DNA of 64,000 bases from Nanobdellota archaeon (lineage in GTDB: Archaea > Nanobdellota > Nanobdellia > Pacearchaeales > GW2011-AR1), in contig JAQICZ010000014.1 of assembly GCA_027858295.1 (NCBI GenBank), positions 1,293-65,292 of the forward strand, read 5' to 3'. A program made the position numbers and the translations under genes. Shown piece after piece: positions 5,279 through 62,235 of the stretch; the first letter of the stretch is position 1, and each line of letters begins with the position of its first letter. Under the pieces are notes generated by a model, which was not told where the DNA came from, made no database searches, and was given only the letters and a program-made list of their open reading frames with translations.

Positions 5279-6001
5279 TTAATCCAATTCCACATATAAA
5301 TAATAAGCAGTAGAACCACTAAACCCACTAGCCCCATTTTCAGGAACAATCATTTGAAAATCATAAGCAGTCCCGTCATAACCAACAGCATCCTCTTCTA
5401 AAATAGCAGCATAAACAATATCTGCACTATCATATAACGCAACTTCTTCAAAAGATGAACTTGATTGCCCTGTGCTATTATAAGTATTAACAGTATGCTG
5501 ACAATTTGTAAATTGAGTCCCCGCAACAAAGAAAGGAGAATGAACATTATCATCAAATGTAGCAGTAATATTGTCTGAAATTCCTGAATGACTCATCGCA
5601 GTATTTTCCGTCTCTAAATCAGTACTATCAGCACAAGCAATTGATCCCCAAACCGGAGTAGTTATTTTTCTCGTAGCATAAACACGCCCACTCACAGAAG
5701 CCAAAGTCCAATCATAAATAGTATTTGCTGAAGAATCCTCCAAAGTAAAAGCCCCCACAACATTTCCGACAAAAGCCTTCCACTTATAATTCTGCATATT
5801 AGCCGTTAAATTAAAAGTTGAAATAATCCCACCAGAAACATTAACCATCTGAGCCCCCACTGCTGTCTTCGTCTCATTAGTCCCAAAAACCAATCCATCA
5901 GGACCACTCGGAGCAACCGCCGAAATAAATGCAGCACATAAAATAAACATTAAGCCTGCTACTAAAAGTAAACCCCCTCTCTTCCCATTTGTTCTCCCCA
6001 T
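5279..6001 (-). CDS. Family A secreted protein (paralog of 17337..18128, 18203..18928 and 62582..63268).
   Basis: The start is placed at the ATG at 6001 (MGRTNGKRGGLLLVAGLMFILCAAFISAVA). That gives a Sec-type signal peptide and a length matching the paralogs. The track's 341-aa ORF reads through upstream repeat DNA. The C-terminus is YYLYVELD. Confidence 0.8.
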   Translation of the reverse strand: MGRTNGKRGGLLLVAGLMFILCAAFISAVAPSGPDGLVFGTNETKTAVGAQMVNVSGGIISTFNLTANMQNYKWKAFVGNVVGAFTLEDSSANTIYDWTLASVSGRVYATRKITTPVWGSIACADSTDLETENTAMSHSGISDNITATFDDNVHSPFFVAGTQFTNCQHTVNTYNSTGQSSSSFEEVALYDSADIVYAAILEEDAVGYDGTAYDFQMIVPENGASGFSGSTAYYLYVELD

Positions 6002-6277
6002 AAACCTTTTTTCCGACAAATCGCTTCCCCAGACTGATTTACATTGAAAACTTTTCCAAGGGTTTTCAATTGTCTGTAAAGTAGTCAACAATCGATTTGA
6101 CCTGTCTGAAAAAAGTTTTCTCATACGCAACAGCGAATGATTCCTTCTTTTATCTCCCATTCTCCCCCTAAACCTTTTTTCCGACAAATCGTTTCCCAAT
6201 CGATTTGACCTGTCTGAAAAAAGTTTTCTCATACGCAACAGCGAATGATTCCTTCTTTTATTTCCCATTCTCCCCCA
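5995..6277 (-). repeat. Tandem upstream modules, each carrying its own GGGGGAG SD and ATGGG. Two 108-bp units plus a 54-bp C-box insert.
   Basis: Units start at 6090 and 6198 (aatcgatttgacctgtctgaaaaaagttttctcatacgcaacagcgaatgattcc...cattctccccc). ATGs lie at 6268, 6160 and 6001. The C-box gaaaacttttccaagggttttc is at about 6046..6067. Confidence 0.85.
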
Positions 6278-6285
6278 TGTTTTTA

Positions 6286-6474
6286 TCATTTTTTTGCCAA
6301 CCAAAGATTTCCTTTTTTACTCAACCAGCCCCGAGTATATAACTTTTGAAGATATTTATCAGCAGTATTCCAACTCATATTCCCAGACTTTGCAATTTCA
6401 GAAGCATTCAACCAATGATTCTTCTTAAGCAAAATTACCAAAATTGTTTTTTCAAAATGACTTAACTCAATCAT
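6286..6474 (-). CDS. Small winged-helix DNA-binding protein (62 aa).
   Basis: Shows the HTH-like pattern LNASEIAKSGNMSWNTADKYLQKLYTRGWL. It resembles 33823..34026 in size and pattern, and overlaps the upstream ORF by 4 nt. Confidence 0.55.
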   Translation of the reverse strand: MIELSHFEKTILVILLKKNHWLNASEIAKSGNMSWNTADKYLQKLYTRGWLSKKGNLWLAKK

Positions 6475-16069: not shown

Positions 16070-16117
16070 TTACGCCACCGGAGCTACACGCCCACCAAAC
16101 TCAATATTACCTTCACT
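16070..16117 (-). pseudogene. Remnant of the last 15 codons plus stop of a family B gene.
   Basis: It encodes SEGNIEFGGRVAPVA*, against CEGNIEFGGRVAPSN* at the 3' end of 16328..17335. The core ccaccaaactcaat(a/g)ttaccttcac is nearly identical. An upstream module directly precedes it. Confidence 0.7.
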
Positions 16118-16119
16118 AA

Positions 16120-16300
16120 ATAAAATTTCGTCAAAACTTTTCCAAGGGTTTTGACTGCATATAAATTTTCATTTTCCTATACACCAAAGCGAATAGAATT
16201 TTTTCTTTAAAACTTTCCCCCGACGAATTTACATTGAAAACTTTTCCAAGGGTTTTCAATTGCCTGTAAATTTGTCCACAAGGGTTTTAAAGTGTCTCTA
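16120..16300 (-). repeat. Two copies of the recurrent upstream module (A/B/C boxes).
   Basis: aaaacttttccaagggttttgac is at 16133..16155 and gcgaata at about 16189. A second C-box, gaaaacttttccaagggttttcaattgcctgtaaa, lies at about 16237..16270. About 55 nt of it nearly match 6035..6085. Confidence 0.8.
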
Positions 16301-22200: not shown

Positions 22201-25200
22201 TAAATTCGATATTAAAATAATATTTATCCAAATCTTTTTTATAAAAATTTGTTCTATTCTTAATTATTAATTCAGATGAATTCAAAATCTTATCATAAAT
22301 TTTAACCTCATCTATATAACCATCAAAAAAGTAAGAAGGAGTTATTCCATTATATCCCATTCCTAAATTAAATTTCAAATCACTTGGTAAAGTCACCGTA
22401 GTTGAAAAAGTTCGGACAACCTCACCATCATAGATAATTGATATATTTTTACCTTCATAAAAAGCAAAACCAATTTGATGCCAATCCCCATCAACCAAAA
22501 CTGAATTTGAAATAGTTCTTCCATAAGAATCTGCCACACTCAAAAAATTAGAACCAGCAGCATGACCAATAGATAAAAGGGTATTTCCCGCGGAGTCATC
22601 AATAGACAAAATGCTTTCCTCATTGACAATAGAGCTTGTTTTAACCCAAGAAAGAATTGTTATATTCTTTGAAACAAAATTATAGGGCGCTCCAATTTCT
22701 ATATAATCCGAATCTCCTCTAAAAAATCTATAAGCACCAAGACCATCATGTCCTTCTCCACTAATCCAACTAGCACCGTTATTGTCACCAAGCGCCCCAC
22801 TTACATAATCATAAATATTATTACTATTCTCCGAAAAAGTCGCCAAATTATCAAGACCAATAAGTCCAATCAAAGAACCATCATAAATAAAATTATTAGT
22901 TCCATTAAAATCTAAAACTACTTCTTCTAAATTTGCTTCAGTTAAATCAACATCAATAATTAATCCATCTGGCAAATGATCCGAAGAATCTGCTGGAGTT
23001 AAACTTCCAAAAACAAGAGATGGGTTAATCGTATCAATTGCAAAATTGTAAATTGTCAAATTTTCATTATTAGAAGAATCACGACAAGAAAATGCAATTA
23101 TGTGATTTCCCTCAGAAACAGAATTTAATGTCATATCAAAATGAGTATCATTAACACGATTCATAGAAACAGAAGATGCAGAATCTAAAACATATGAACA
23201 ACTATTTCCATATTCGTCTAAGTAAACATCAATATTAAAATTTCCTGTTGTGTAAGCACCTTCATTTTCAATTCCAGTGATTACTAATTGGGGTGCAACA
23301 ACATCTCCAAATTTAGTAGAAACCGTTCTAGTTATTTGACGAACACCCCCATAATAATTTTCAGCATAAGTAGTGAACATATAATCATCATTAATGAGAG
23401 AAGTTTCATTTACAAAAAAAGTTCTCTGACCAGTATACAATTCTTTAGCTTCCTCATCGCTAATTACTCTATCATAAACTACAAACTTATCAAATGACCC
23501 ATTAAAATATTCAGGTGTTCCACCTGTATCTTCAATACGACCAAAGGAATAAAAATTATTAGTAACGTTTCCAATATAAGAAATAGCTTGTTGATTTAAT
23601 TCCCCATTAATATAAATCTTTGAGGAACCATTATTTGCATAACGACTAATTACAATATGCTTCCAAGTCCCATCATTAATTGGGACTGTTGATTTTACTG
23701 CCGCAGAATTCGCAACAGTATATCCAATATGCCCAGTTGCATCAAGCCAACCAATAAAAATATCATTTCCTCCTCCTGCTTCTTCAATACCAGTCACTCC
23801 AGGAGCCATCCACATAGTGTCATCCCCTACTTGTGTTGTCTTTACCCAAAAAGATAATGAAGAAGTTGAACCCAATACAGGGGTTAAAGAAACGTCAGTT
23901 TGAATGTAGTCATTAACTCCATCAAAACTTAACGCAAGCCCCTCATATCCAGTTGTATAATTAGCACCATAAATTGTTCCATCAATTCCCCCAACAAAAG
24001 AAGAAACATGAGTATCATTCTCTCCCCTAAATTCTTCACGATCTAAATTATATCCAAGCATGATTAATGAATTGAATAAAGTCTGATTTACACCATTAAA
24101 ATCTAAAATAACTGTGTTCAAATCGGTTTCATTAACACTAATATTAATTGGAATAAAATCTTGTGGAACTTCAATGCCATTAACAGGTGTAGGATTAATA
24201 TAAGATGCTCGCGGAACTTTAATGACATCTACCGTAGGCATTAAAAAACCAAAAGCATTTCCATAATCATATCTAGCATAACATCTAAGAATTGCATTTC
24301 CAGGTGAAATAGCCATTACAGGTATATCTTCAGACACAGAACCATAATTAATTGTTCCCAAATCCCGCCACTCATATCCGTCACCAAAAATCAAATGCTC
24401 ATTATTATTATGAACATTGACCCACACAGAATCATTCAAATATTGCAAAGTCAAATCCACATTTACACATTCCCCAATAGAACAATTAACTTGACAAGTA
24501 AAATTATCTTCTTCCGCTTCCGTCATAACTTTGTCATTAACAGGATAAAGAAAATCAGTATATAATTGCCCAATCAATGAAAAATCCGAAAACTCAACGA
24601 AAGAAGCTTTTAATCCATCCCAACGATGAATTAATGTTACATTTCCAACATTATCATTATATCCAGAAATCACAAGTTTTATTTTATCAGAATTTTTTAA
24701 AATGAATTCATTAGGAACAATACAATTTGAAGTCCATACTCCAGAAGTCGCACTAACACGCAATCCTCCAGTATAATCATTTCCAGATTGACAAATTAAA
24801 TTATCACCACTTGAATTTTCAAAATATAATTTCCATGTTAAATAAACTGCATTCACAGTATCAACCTCTGTATATGAACTGAAACTTACAGTAGCTCCAG
24901 TTGGAATTCTCATACCATTATTTCCTAAATATGTTGTCATCGGAATAACAAAATCAGTAACAGAAGAACCAGATAAATTAATGGATAAATAATTTTCAAT
25001 TAAATCTCGCTTATTCTTTAAATTTATTTGGGCAACATTTCCAACAAAATTTGAAGTCGAAGATTCATACAGCCGATTATTCCAATCAATACTATACTCT
25101 CCAGTAACATTAATTTGCCTTGATGAACTAATCACTTCACGATTAGAATAATCAAGACAACTAACAAACCAATCATGAATACCATTAGAAACAAAAGTTT

Positions 25201-34034: not shown

Positions 34035-34131
34035 TCCCCTAAATTTTTTCATTTAAATCGTTTTCCAATCGATTTAAACTTGCATGAAAAAGTTTTCTCA
34101 TACGGCAAAGCGAATGAGATCCCCAAATCAT
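34035..34131 (-). repeat. Copy of the recurrent upstream module ahead of the wHTH gene.
   Basis: cccctaaatttttt...aatcgatttaaact..tgaaaaagttttctcatacggcaaagcgaatga. The box order matches that at 6090..6190. Confidence 0.8.
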
Positions 34132-57247: not shown

Positions 57248-58438
57248 TCATACACTCATCACCGCCCCAAAAACAATATTTCCCTCACATACCCCCCCCA
57301 CCTTTTCAGGGACATAAACTCTCCAATATGTTGATTTATATGCATCCTCGAATAAATCGTTCTGTCTATATTGCAAATTAAAATTATTCGTAAAAATATT
57401 ACTAGTCAAATTGTTGTAGTTGATCTCGAACTCCCCAAGTGTTAAATCCCCAAAAATTGAAGAAGCTAAATTATACTTTTCATAATAAACTGGCAAATTA
57501 TTACCAGTAGAACAATTCATAGCAAGGTTATCTCCGGGTGTTGATCCATACCCATACAAATTCAAATCAACCTCGACATTCCCTCGATTAAGGATAACGA
57601 CTTCAGACTCATTAGAGACTTCCTGGCTAGACAAGTTTCCAAATGAAATAGCCTCTTGAATTTCCAAAGATAGTAAAGGATTAACATTTACATCATCAAT
57701 TCCAGAGCCTGTACTGGATGGATCGTCAACTCTCATCTGACAATTCCAATTTCCAACATTAGCATAATACCAGACATCAAAAGAACAGGTAATCTTAGAC
57801 TGATTTTCATCTCCATAACTATTATTGATTTCACAACTTGAATTTGAATAATGTTTATTATTGTCATTTGTATCTCCAATAAAGGAATTTGAAGTATCAT
57901 AAAATTCAGCAACAGCATTGCTTAAGACTTGTCCTTCATACTCACGAGCAACTCCCTCACAAACAACTTCCCTCGTGAAATTCGTAGCTAAATCTATTTC
58001 ATTTACAGTTAAATTGAAAGAATCATCGACCAAAACAAATTCAAATTCCGGAGCAACATTCAAAGTTAAATTGGGAGCAATATTATATCCGGCTCCAGTA
58101 ACTAATACATTTACAGCACTAGACAACATCTCTCCAGTCGCTTCAAACACACCCACACTTAAAACATCGCCTACTATACAAGGTGTTGCAAGCATTTCAC
58201 AATCAATCAAATAAAAATCATCGGTATAAGAATTACCATTCGGACCAACAACATCACTTGCATTATCGAGCCCATCACTTGTAAAATTCCATAAAGTAAC
58301 AACCTTATTATTTGCACTCCCAGTCCCACTTCCCCCATCAACATACCCAGTAATCCAATGCGCAGAACTCACCATCGGTAAAATAAACAAGAAACTAATA
58401 ACTAATAACCAACAACCAATAACTAGCTTACTTCCCAT
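57248..58438 (-). CDS. Family B secreted protein.
   Basis: The start is placed at MGSKLVIGCWLLVISFLFILPMVSSA (ATG at 58438), preceded by GGGGGATTTTAAGA. The C-terminus is TYWRVYVPEKVGGVCEGNIVFG. Confidence 0.75.
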   Translation of the reverse strand: MGSKLVIGCWLLVISFLFILPMVSSAHWITGYVDGGSGTGSANNKVVTLWNFTSDGLDNASDVVGPNGNSYTDDFYLIDCEMLATPCIVGDVLSVGVFEATGEMLSSAVNVLVTGAGYNIAPNLTLNVAPEFEFVLVDDSFNLTVNEIDLATNFTREVVCEGVAREYEGQVLSNAVAEFYDTSNSFIGDTNDNNKHYSNSSCEINNSYGDENQSKITCSFDVWYYANVGNWNCQMRVDDPSSTGSGIDDVNVNPLLSLEIQEAISFGNLSSQEVSNESEVVILNRGNVEVDLNLYGYGSTPGDNLAMNCSTGNNLPVYYEKYNLASSIFGDLTLGEFEINYNNLTSNIFTNNFNLQYRQNDLFEDAYKSTYWRVYVPEKVGGVCEGNIVFGAVMSV

Positions 58439-58676
58439 TCTTAAAATCCCCCATACAAAATTTCGTAAAAACTTTCCCAAGGGTTTTTACCTGGCTGAAA
58501 TTTTGGCACGCCATATTACCAAAACGAATGGCCGGGATTTTACTTCCCATCCTTAAAATCCCCCATACAAAATTTCGTCAAAAACTTTTCAAAGGGTTTT
58601 TGACCTGCCTGAAATTTTGGCACCCATATACCCAAGCGAATGGTCGGGATTTTACTTCCCATTCTTAAAATCCCCC
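58425..58676 (-). repeat. Tandem 112-bp upstream modules: two full units plus flanking partial copies. Each ends in GGGGGATTTTAAG(A/G)ATGGGAAGTAA.
   Basis: ATG triplets lie at 58438, 58550 and 58662, an exact 112-nt spacing. I estimate about 88% identity between the units. Confidence 0.9.
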
Positions 58677-60829
58677 TTAACCTGCTCAAACAAAGGTAAA
58701 ATCCTTTCTTTAACAGAAGGCGACAACAAATTAAATTGTTTCTCTAACTTTCCAAACAAGACAGCATCCTTTGTTTTCCTGAATTTCTCAAGACCAGCTT
58801 CAATCTCTGAAATCAATATTCCATTATACAAATGCTCGGTCTTCGAATATAACTGATTCCTTTCTTTCCCAGCCAACCTAGCATAACTCATCTTAACCTT
58901 AGAATACATTTCTTTTGCTTTCTTAATTTCACCCGAATCCAACAAATCTTGCGCCTCAGTAATTCTATTTGTTGCCCTAAAATAATCATCAGATAAGCTT
59001 CCATTTCTAAAATAGACAAAATAAATAATCAGCACAACTAAAAGAATGGCCCCAAAGATTCCGAGATAGCCTTGACTCGAAGAGTTAAAGACAGAGAACC
59101 CAGTGATGCTACCACTATCAGAATCTTCTTTTACAACTTTAATAAAACTAAATTCAATCTCTTCCAAATCCGCAAAATTAGTAACCTTAGACAAAACATA
59201 AGAAATTGCCTTAGTATCAGTAGCAAATGAAATAACATTATCACTAACTAAATTGTAATTCCTATTATTCACCTCTATTCCTTCTGCAATTGATGAATCC
59301 AAAACTTCCATAAAATAAGCATCTTCTATACCTTCCAGCTTTGAGTTCAAACTACGCTTCACAATTGAGAACTTTTTACTAGAACTGTCCAGATTTAGAA
59401 CCTCAACATTATAAAATTCACTCTCAACAACCAAAGGTGTCTCTTTCAAAATAGCAGCCGTTTCCTTCATGCTTTTTTCCAGATCTTTTTCGCTAATAAC
59501 TTCATCAATTTCCAGAATTGATTTTCTTTGCTTTTCTTCACTTAATTCCTCTCTTCTTTTTTTCTCGTCTAAAATTGTTAAATACTCAGGAACCCCTTTT
59601 TCAATAACTCCAAGTCTAACTCTAGAAGATTCAATTTTTTTCTCCAAATCTTCTCGTGTTAAATCTTGATCCTTCAGATTCAAAGAACTAATTCTAATAC
59701 TTTCAATTTCCTTTTTTGCATTTTCAATTTCCTTATCAAGTCCCAACAACTTAAACAACATATCCTCAGACTCACTAAAACCCCCAACTGCATCAACCCT
59801 TTCAACCAGATTATCAATTTCAGATAAGAAAGAATCAACTTTCCCCCTAAGCTGCGGATTCAATCCACTATTCAAATCAGCATCATCAAACAAACTAATC
59901 CCTTCGACCTCTCTAGACATGCTTCCTTCATTCCCGGCATCATCCACTGCAGAAACTCTATAATAATAAGTTGTCCCATCTTCTACAGAAGTATCAACAA
60001 AATCCGTATCATCTGTTTCCTCATAATAATCCATATAATCTTCATTTGAAAGTTCAGATCGATAAATTCTATAATCACTAGCATCTTCTACCGGCTCCCA
60101 ATCTAATTCAATCCTACCTTCCTTACTAATTGCTTTGATTTCCGCAACCAATCTCGGCTCAACAAAATCATATGAGAAATAAGCACCCTCAACAACATCA
60201 GTCCCCAATCTTCCCTCTAAATCATTCGCTCTAAACTTAAATGACAAAACACCTTCTTCTAAATTATCAGGCATAACAATCTTTCCTATCCAACTCATTC
60301 CAGCGCCTGTTACAACCAGGTCATTATAACTAACACCATTAAAAGAATATTGAACTATCGGAATACTCGAAACATATTTAGAAGTCTCCACCCCCACTTC
60401 AAGTTCATTATCATTTATGGGCTCTGACTTATCCAAATGAATTTTAGCTGAAATTAAAGAATTAACTCTCAAAGCTACCTCAAATTCTTCAGGATCAGGG
60501 TCATTATCATCAACTTTACATTTTATATAATAATAATATGTTCCATCCTCCAAATCATAGAAACTCTTTTCGTGGCTCGTTCCACCATTCACATCAAATA
60601 AATTAGACATAATACTATAACTATCTCCTGAATCCATCGAGTATCTACAGATTGTTCTATTGTCTGTTGTAATTTTCATCATTGCAGAATTATAGTCAAC
60701 AGTTCTCTCAAAATATCCACCTTCATCAAAATTATAATGTATTGTAAATGACTGATCCTTAGCACTCCCAAAAGCCAAAGTCGCAACTAACAAAAATACC
60801 AAGATCATTATTGATCCTATCCTTCTCAT
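58652..60829 (-). CDS. Type I membrane protein, 725 aa: signal peptide, beta domains, FN3-like domain, coiled coil, TM helix and helical cytoplasmic tail.
   Basis: Signal peptide MILVFLLVATLAFGSA. The FN3-like segment is IELDWEPVEDASDYRIYRS...TYYYRVSAVDDAGNEG. The TM helix is LGIFGAILLVVLIIYFVYF. Confidence 0.75.
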   Translation of the reverse strand: MRRIGSIMILVFLLVATLAFGSAKDQSFTIHYNFDEGGYFERTVDYNSAMMKITTDNRTICRYSMDSGDSYSIMSNLFDVNGGTSHEKSFYDLEDGTYYYYIKCKVDDNDPDPEEFEVALRVNSLISAKIHLDKSEPINDNELEVGVETSKYVSSIPIVQYSFNGVSYNDLVVTGAGMSWIGKIVMPDNLEEGVLSFKFRANDLEGRLGTDVVEGAYFSYDFVEPRLVAEIKAISKEGRIELDWEPVEDASDYRIYRSELSNEDYMDYYEETDDTDFVDTSVEDGTTYYYRVSAVDDAGNEGSMSREVEGISLFDDADLNSGLNPQLRGKVDSFLSEIDNLVERVDAVGGFSESEDMLFKLLGLDKEIENAKKEIESIRISSLNLKDQDLTREDLEKKIESSRVRLGVIEKGVPEYLTILDEKKRREELSEEKQRKSILEIDEVISEKDLEKSMKETAAILKETPLVVESEFYNVEVLNLDSSSKKFSIVKRSLNSKLEGIEDAYFMEVLDSSIAEGIEVNNRNYNLVSDNVISFATDTKAISYVLSKVTNFADLEEIEFSFIKVVKEDSDSGSITGFSVFNSSSQGYLGIFGAILLVVLIIYFVYFRNGSLSDDYFRATNRITEAQDLLDSGEIKKAKEMYSKVKMSYARLAGKERNQLYSKTEHLYNGILISEIEAGLEKFRKTKDAVLFGKLEKQFNLLSPSVKERILPLFEQVKGDFKNGK

Positions 60830-62122: not shown

Positions 62123-62139
62123 TATTATTTCCATCCAGA

Positions 62140-62235
62140 CCCTAAACCTTTTTCCCCGTTGAAAGTTTTCCAAGGCTTTCACCCTGTCTGAAAAAAGTTT
62201 TCCCATACACCGAAGCGAATGGTTAATTTTAGCCC
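62140..62235 (-). repeat. Copy of the recurrent upstream module.
   Basis: ccctaaaccttttt..gaaagttttccaaggctttc..ctgtctgaaaaaagttttcccatac..gcgaatgg. Confidence 0.8.

Follow-up and report, generated by a model that had tools for sequence, protein, structure and literature searches.

The DNA analysed here is a stretch of 64,000 nucleotides from a Nanobdellota archaeon (contig JAQICZ010000014.1 of assembly GCA_027858295.1; hereafter the window), in which a tandem array with a 112-nt period lies where the end of a gene for a 725-aa protein meets the start of a gene for a 396-aa protein of family B. All array and gene features at this locus lie on the minus strand. With Tandem Repeats Finder a single array was detected at 58428-58676 with a period of 112 and 2.2 copies (91% matches, 2% indels), and the 25-mer GGGGGATTTTAAGRATGGGAAGTAA occurs three times at a spacing of exactly 112 nt, against an expectation of 0 from 100 shuffles. 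An earlier note, made from the sequence alone, had described an exact 112-bp tandem. This exactness holds for the spacing of the 25-mers, but not for the two units of the window, which match at 91% and differ at ~10 positions, among them four 1-nt indels that cancel out. The repeat starts given in that note were recovered, with ATGGGAAGTAA beginning at 58662, 58550 and 58438. Each 112-nt unit is made up of an 84-nt structured element, here called E, and a 25-nt copy of the gene junction, here called F. The layout is F1 - AATCCCGA - E1 - F2 - AATCCCGG - E2 - F3, in which the terminal G's of E double as the first G's of F. The short open reading frames (ORFs) that run from one junction copy to the next are listed as relay ORFs.

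58652-60829, minus strand: 725-aa gene, from the ORF list, with a weak Fn3-like match; its last 8 codons and TAA lie inside F1
58652-58676, minus strand: F1, first 25-nt junction copy GGGGGATTTTAAGAATGGGAAGTAA, in which the 725-aa gene stops and a decoy Shine-Dalgarno (SD) sequence and ATG (58662) lie
58644-58651, minus strand: the insert's 8-nt 5' extension AATCCCGA; with the TAA it forms the predicted 3' hairpin arm, which pairs with GGGATTTTA of F1
58560-58643, minus strand: E1, 84-nt copy of the dispersed element (covariance model R1, 92.3 bits, E=1e-17; also nhmmer); its last 5 G are shared with F2
58540-58564, minus strand: F2, second junction copy, the AAGGATG variant, with a decoy SD and ATG (58550) and the TAA that closes relay ORF 1
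58532-58539, minus strand: the second insert's 8-nt 5' extension AATCCCGG
58448-58531, minus strand: E2, second element copy (R1, 96.9 bits)
58428-58452, minus strand: F3, third junction copy, with the genuine SD and ATG (58438) of family B and the TAA that closes relay ORF 2
58540-58662, minus strand: relay ORF 1, 40 codons, MGSKIPTIRLGIWVPKFQAGQKPFEKFLTKFCMGDFKDGK
58428-58550, minus strand: relay ORF 2, 40 codons, MGSKIPAIRFGNMACQNFSQVKTLGKVFTKFCMGDFKNGK, with a frameshift in the middle compared with ORF 1
57248-58438, minus strand: family-B gene, 396 aa, with a signal-peptide-like N-terminus; its orthologues overlap the 725-aa homologue in the relatives G001, G008 and G017

The 725-aa frame (60829..58652) ends in GDFKNGK-TAA within the junction copy at 58662, as the earlier note had seen. 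The note was also right that family B starts at the ATG at 58438 and at neither of the other two, since the N-terminus read from there (MGSKLVIG..SSAHWITGYV) matches that of the orthologues (MKNKILF..SSAHYIVGYV). Where it had pointed to one 40-aa frame that stops 8 nt past the next ATG, two such frames were found (58662..58540 and 58550..58428). A Pfam search of the neighbouring proteins returned nothing beyond an ArsR-like helix-turn-helix domain upstream, and a scan of the window for tRNA returned none.

Homologues of the 725-aa protein are present in four congeners at 43-49% identity, and its C-terminus aligns with theirs through the final residue. The G001 homologue finishes with ...AEVENGN-TAA and contains the start of the family-B homologue (GAAAATGGAAATTAA), and in both G008 and G017 the junction GAAAATGAAAAATAA is followed directly by MKNKILF...SSAHYIVGYVND. 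All three genomes have an 11-nt gene overlap of the form ATGnnAAnTAA with zero spacer, and orthologous junctions read AGGGGTGAAGTGGAAAATGAAAAATAA or similar. A same-strand stop/start overlap that is kept in relatives, as expected of a coupled gene pair, was accordingly found at every junction copy of the window and in G001, G008 and G017. The conserved peptide or position expected of a regulatory upstream ORF was not found, because these three relatives carry no such ORF and the peptides differ. The chain of stop/start overlaps that the earlier note had read in the array does exist, and the overlap shared with the congeners traces it to a genuine coupling site. From this comparison, the ancestral state is a spacer-free 11-nt overlap ATGnnAAnTAA of the 725-aa and family-B genes. 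Because the congeners show the overlap without a spacer, F is this ancestral junction, duplicated around an insert: the 725-aa gene contributes its final codons and TAA, and family B its SD and ATG. In G004 (L011 = G004:C4, 1440-1560, minus strand) the 725-aa homologue retains the ATGAAAAATAA end; the family-B gene is absent there and unrelated sequence stands in its place.

The comparison of unit number between strains that the earlier note had proposed could be made on assemblies. Exact look-up of the 725-aa protein identified two further Joint Genome Institute (JGI) metagenome contigs, L041 and L042, with an identical 725-aa protein and flanks 99.1-99.98% identical to the window. Other loci of this genome are carried by samples that include JGI 3300051639 and 3300051640 and the Logan runs SRR22875240 and SRR22875241. 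L041 holds one unit, F - AATCCCGA - E1 - F, within a perfect 25-nt direct repeat; the window holds two; and L042 holds four (E1, E2', E2, E1') with five F copies and with 40-codon ORFs called in 112-nt steps. Every unit in the three assemblies is exactly 112 nt long, and together they contain four distinguishable unit variants. These unit numbers of 1, 2 and 4 are lower bounds, as the assemblies are built from short reads and a de Bruijn assembler can shorten tandem arrays. The four-unit contig does not contain the window haplotype (AAGGATG then GTTTTGG) as a sub-path, and the populations therefore differ. The one-unit form fits a single insertion with a 25-nt target duplication, and the mosaic unit types of the four-unit form fit unequal recombination.

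Most of the unit turned out to be a copy of a genome-wide repeat, and not the promoter/SD/ATG unit that the earlier note had made of it. When the 249-nt array served as a BLAST query against the archaeon's own genome (1.35 Mb, 64 contigs), the ~85-nt unit core was matched 64 times, on many contigs, and iterated nhmmer searches of the same genome gave 158 E matches, 44 of them full length. E matches make up 0.75% of the genome and occur on 45 of the 64 contigs; they also lie within 300 nt of 26 of the 128 contig ends, which means that these repeats break the assembly. Sixty of the 65 scored copies are intergenic. At several copies the homology ends sharply at the E ends, and others are fused to various repeat modules in a mosaic fashion.

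The E consensus reads CCATTCGCTTGGGAATATGG-GTGCCAAAATTTCAGRCAGGTYAAAAC-loop-GTTTTRACGAAATTTTGTATGGG, with UUGGAAAA as the conserved loop. In an alignment of 39 distinct full-length copies, 95.4% of the cells in three helices pair, and 13 of the 22 pairs have changes on both sides. None of 500 shuffles reached these values, and partners slid by 1-3 columns pair at only 33-52%. RNAalifold recovers the same three helices; the folding energies of single E sequences are unremarkable. By manual tally, the exceptions in the helices are about equally G:U (~10 cells) and A:C (~11 cells), and the data are therefore silent on whether the hairpins act as RNA or DNA. A search of the window against Rfam 15 gave no gathering-level match (the best permissive match, E=0.088, was to a miRNA model). 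A k-turn reading of the internal loop was dropped, as the required G-A positions vary.

Covariance model R1 finds 71 E copies in the own genome. Across 60 relatives it finds weak copies only, six in G001 and two in G010, and in these diverged copies the loop AUUGGAAAAC and the bulge CAAACAG are retained and the stems covary. E is thus an old low-copy element of the genus that expanded in this single lineage. The genome, 1.35 Mb at 88% completeness, compares with 0.4-1.0 Mb in the 60 listed relatives and is the sole one with an E burst. Exact-pattern scans of metagenome and genome collections with the 25-mer and E cores gave no matches, although records of the own genome may lie outside the scanned set. 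A literature search found no small structured dispersed repeats described for this archaeal lineage, and to our knowledge none has been. E is thus a newly described small structured dispersed repeat in a DPANN archaeon.

Taken together, we think it highly probable that insertion of E into the overlap of two coupled genes explains the 112-nt tandem. A non-autonomous, hairpin-forming E would have inserted into the 11-nt overlap, with the tandem as its footprint. The 25-nt junction now stands on both sides of each E, in the manner of a long target-site duplication, and both genes have therefore kept intact ends. The repeated SD/ATG/TAA would in that case be a duplicated target site and not a built regulatory cassette. 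Recombination or slippage between junction or E copies may then expand and contract the array. Ribosomes that finish the 725-aa gene may reach family B by termination-reinitiation at each of the short ORFs, which would make the insertion tolerable.

Several observations weigh against this reading. Most E copies have no flanking direct repeat above background, and the 25-nt duplication is therefore not a demonstrated general property of E. E1 and E2 share an identity of 0.83, compared with 0.87-0.89 to unlinked copies, while neighbouring strains show a single base difference over 5.3 kb. Plain in-place duplication is thus insufficient, and ectopic gene conversion or a second insertion is needed: as the resemblance of E1 to E2 does not exceed that of either to unlinked copies, the units have exchanged sequence with other E copies or arisen by two insertions. 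Short-read metagenome assemblies, from which the copy numbers are taken, can collapse arrays, and in a similar array a sister assembly shows an N-gap. As for a mobilising enzyme, searches of the own genome (assembly 88% complete) gave no match to Y1/RAYT (PF01797), TnpB (PF07282) or Cas1, the PF01797 search having matched in control genomes. The lack of a TnpB match also speaks against an omega-RNA or end-derived element of IS200/IS605 type. The only DDE transposase found is that of one IS1182-family gene, whose inverted repeats GGCTGTGTCACAAT are unlike the E ends and absent from E.

This IS1182-family gene (C32:1-1650, L051; 515 aa, NF033551 300 bits) belongs to an element that begins at the first base of its contig. 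When all ORFs were compared with one another by BLAST, no protein family reached three copies, and an active multi-copy insertion sequence (IS) is therefore not visible. The E ends CCATTC/GTATGG form an imperfect inverted repeat that matches at 5 of 6 positions. A CRISPR-like array with F as repeat and E as spacer was rejected, given the lack of a Cas1 match and the fact that the "spacers" are homologous E copies.

Two-E arrays with three flank copies of 20-28 nt were also found at C15 (period 124), C20 (95) and C55 (115) and at 5990-6300 of the window (108). At C15 and C55 the upstream gene finishes inside the first flank copy, which takes in its final codons and stop. For the C15 array, which has 2.2 copies in this genome, one further assembly shows 3.2 copies and another an N-gap; the C55 and window-5990 arrays are the same in all assemblies seen. 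The flank copies start with bases that also end E (GGG, GTGG, GTTTAG, TCGGG), and 0-32 extra bases lie between the left flank copy and E. Flanking repeats of 15-28 nt occur at ~6 loci in all.

The array at 5990-6300 (minus strand) has three GGGGGAGAATGGGARATAAAAGAAGGAA-like flank copies, and its second E carries a 54-nt insert. As the period is divisible by 3 and no stop interrupts the frame, JGI annotates a 336-aa gene that reads across the two E copies into the family-A protein. This gene starts at an ATGA overlap with a 62-aa upstream gene and is of equal length in two other assemblies. The sole clear homologue of the 62-aa protein (G005) has a different downstream neighbour and gives no ancestral state for this array. 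Two E arrays are followed directly on their 3' side by tandem heptamers in 6-9 copies, (ACGGTTG)n and (ACCGTAG)n (C15:~6230-6280 and C55:~23400-23470; L046:2559-2604 and L049:1998-2066). At C51:7194-7410 a single E sits 32 nt downstream of a tRNA-Val(TAC), and a 20-nt direct repeat, the last 9 nt of this tRNA plus a T-rich trailer (TCGGGTCCATATTTTTTTCT), recurs right after E. The remaining E copies in the window are as follows.

6165-6248 and 6026-6099 (span 6026-6248), minus strand: E copies of the second window array, F-E-F-E-F', period 108
16113-16196 and 16216-16299, minus strand: further E copies (R1)
34035-34117, minus strand: further E copy (R1)
62139-62222, minus strand: further E copy (R1), directly upstream of the next gene start

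The last of these ends 2 nt ahead of ATGGAAATAATAATGAAAAAAAG, the start of the next gene. The JGI call of this gene (426 aa) starts within E, and its true start is likely the ATG of MKKRNNNLVRT.

The reading frames of the main array bear on whether insertion of E left the two genes coupled. The period of 112 equals 3n+1 and the frame through E is open, and each duplicated ATG therefore opens a 40-codon ORF that runs to the next TAA. As these ORFs close at each junction, the native overlap geometry recurs at every one, and every unit in the three assemblies has a 40-codon ORF that begins and ends in the native overlap. About one third of E frames are open, compared with 11% in shuffles. Only one of the three period classes closes the chain, and the two unit types do so while differing by four cancelling indels. 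A rough estimate, which draws on just two unit types from a locus picked out by its pattern, puts the chance of an open and closing chain at a few percent, which is suggestive. A conserved upstream-ORF peptide finds no backing, since the 40-aa peptides are frameshifted in the middle between units.

A hairpin is predicted at the junction copies F1 and F2. In F, GGGAUUUUA pairs with UAAAAUCCC, which comprises the stop codon and the insert's 5' extension, to give a helix of 9 bp. Predicted fold energies are -12.2 kcal/mol for F1, -11.5 kcal/mol for F2 and -1.8 kcal/mol for F3. In this model the hairpin buries the decoy SDs and places the AUG in the loop, and at F3, where no such hairpin forms, the genuine start is unmasked. 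Flank/extension hairpins of a similar kind are present at C55 and C64. The masking hairpin at the main locus may be selected or may be a by-product of the insertion.

In Haloferax and in Escherichia coli, termination-reinitiation requires overlaps, and gaps of ~20 nt nearly abolish it (PMC10666635; also PMC6728339). Short 3' regions of the upstream gene suffice for the process (PMC10666635; also PMC6728339). Because such gaps nearly abolish coupling, an insert of 112-448 nt without relay ORFs would uncouple the two genes. As every unit keeps an ORF that spans from overlap to overlap, a relay of termination-reinitiation is structurally possible. A translational-coupling relay is plausible. A more specific proposal is that the duplicated overlap, the 3n+1 unit length and the hairpin over the decoy SDs restrict re-initiation to ribosomes terminating upstream, that between one and four of the 40-codon ORFs then pass these on to the gene of the family-B surface protein, and that unit number, as changed by recombination, acts as a heritable dial on coupled expression; this we consider unlikely.

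The rival explanation that survives best holds that selection keeps the array as a succession of termination-reinitiation steps, with unit number tuning the amount of family-B surface protein per 725-aa protein, like a contingency locus. It can draw on the conservation of the 11-nt overlap motif in four congeners, on the retention of the 112-nt period and of an open 40-codon frame in all units despite the four indels between E1 and E2, and on the low chance estimated above for frames that stay open and close. It would also account for the decoy SDs being masked by a predicted hairpin that a terminating ribosome would open, and for the need of relay ORFs, without which coupling would be lost to gaps as short as ~20 nt (PMC10666635). 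On the other hand, the peptide is unconserved, the frame argument comprises two independent unit types only, and the locus was selected for its pattern. Moreover, a downstream gene that could be coupled is missing from the similar C15 and C55 arrays, the genuine start may initiate independently from its own unmasked SD, and the copy-number differences may partly be assembly effects. We therefore regard selection for the array as doubtful, though as a possibility to be taken seriously.

A second alternative, raised in the earlier note, is a duplicated promoter, in which each unit would be an archaeal promoter/leader that drives family B. The TTTTAAGA motif in F and A/T-rich stretches in E look TATA-like, and the orientation of E is biased toward that of the downstream gene (38:17, p=0.006). 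However, E stands in all four configurations relative to flanking gene ends and in every orientation, at distances to the starts that range from -6 to >1000 nt. In addition, TTTTAAGA lies only 1-8 nt before the ATG (F bases 7-14, the ATG being bases 15-17), too close for a transcript start, and in relatives the family-B gene overlaps its neighbour and leaves no room for a promoter. A promoter function of the units is improbable on these grounds, and the note's alternative found no support.

A third alternative is that E works at the level of RNA, as a small RNA gene or as a SINE-like (short interspersed nuclear element) sequence retro-mobilised by the genome's reverse transcriptase (RT), with the variable long flanks, 3' microhomology and 5' extra bases as marks of target-primed reverse transcription. 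The covarying stems and conserved loops, found even in the diverged G001 and G010 copies, are in line with this, as are flanks of 15-28 nt that start with the bases of the E 3' end and the 0-32 extra bases on the 5' side. The genome also has an RT of the type found in diversity-generating retroelements (DGRs), and an E-like copy is present in the spacer between its template repeat (TR) and RT gene. Nevertheless, the near-equal G:U and A:C counts give no strand-specific RNA signature, and truncated E copies miss either end and not just the 5' end. The E-like copy by the RT is antisense to the DGR transcript and weak (34 bits), and presence of the two is not matched among relatives, with RT but no E in G017 and G006 and weak E but no detectable RT in G001 and G010. 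We consider this explanation quite improbable.

The DGR itself is complete (C51:13900-16300, minus strand), with a target gene that has a variable repeat (VR) at its 3' end, followed by the TR and a 347-aa RT. TR and VR differ at adenines (ends ...CGGGGT and ...CGGAAT), the weak antisense E-like copy fills the TR-RT spacer, and a decayed DGR copy lies at C20:48000-50000. A link between DGR and E is of low probability for the reasons given above. The locus was rejected as a DGR target, as the unit differences are not adenine-specific; mutagenesis of adenines in the F copies was considered as well, but F offers too few sites and the differences within E show no preference for A.

The weakest alternative, a tandem produced by repeat mis-assembly, could appeal to E and associated repeats at 26 of the 128 contig ends and to the N-gap in a similar array of a sister assembly, but is very improbable given that the two units differ at ~10 positions, that an F-E unit stands at the junction in three independent assemblies with four distinguishable variants, and that the window haplotype is not contained in the four-unit assembly.

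The insertion of E into a gene overlap is of interest for several reasons. It documents an abundant, mobile-looking family of structured repeats in a DPANN archaeon, a type of genome that is usually thought of as streamlined. It also offers a rare before/after view of an insertion into an overlapping gene pair, in which a 25-nt duplication rebuilds both gene ends. Furthermore, the locus is a natural test case for termination-reinitiation relayed across a long spacer by short ORFs, where single-pair experiments suggest that coupling would otherwise be lost across such a distance (PMC10666635). In annotation, likely by-products such as the 40-aa ORFs and the N-terminal extensions through E should not be taken as genes without evidence.

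Among known repeats, E resembles BOX, RUP and SPRITE of Streptococcus pneumoniae, the repetitive extragenic palindromes and bacterial interspersed mosaic elements (REP/BIME) of enterobacteria and the Correia elements of Neisseria. All are non-coding sequences of ~80-150 nt with tens to hundreds of mostly intergenic copies, and they share predicted hairpins, module mosaics, variable tandem number and lineage-specific bursts. Variable tandem copy number is known for boxB. Unlike these families, E has a DPANN host, shows no sequence or Rfam relation to them, lacks long terminal inverted repeats, has no cognate transposase or RAYT that we could find, and contains a 20-28-nt copy of the local flank in its tandem unit. 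With REP and REPIN sequences in particular, E shares the extragenic imperfect palindrome, but at 84 nt it is longer than a typical REP, and a RAYT was not found. [quoted passage not shown] Most DDE families make target duplications of 2-12 nt. In contrast to a MITE, the duplication here is 25 nt, varies between 15 and 28 nt by locus and is absent at most copies, and the ends CCATTC/GTATGG form only a 6-nt imperfect inverted repeat that is unmatched to the genome's IS.

The junction, in turn, resembles the coupled overlapping pairs described by Huber et al. (PMC6728339, PMC10666635), in that the genes are co-directional, the downstream ATG lies in the end of the upstream gene and the SD lies in the upstream coding sequence. 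As in such pairs, the arrangement is conserved across congeners. It departs from usual coupled pairs in having an overlap of 11 nt instead of 4 or 1, and in that the site is reiterated and short ORFs could bridge 112-448 nt. We know of no natural relay of this kind. Compared with the Rickettsia palindromic elements (RPE), to which it has no sequence relation, E at the main locus is intergenic, and translation through it would be confined to the separate 40-codon ORFs; as with RPE, a palindrome is nonetheless tolerated in translated sequence, and at 5990-6300 E is in frame with the downstream gene. With its long junction duplication, reiterated overlap and differing unit numbers, the locus is an unusual variant of dispersed-repeat insertion.

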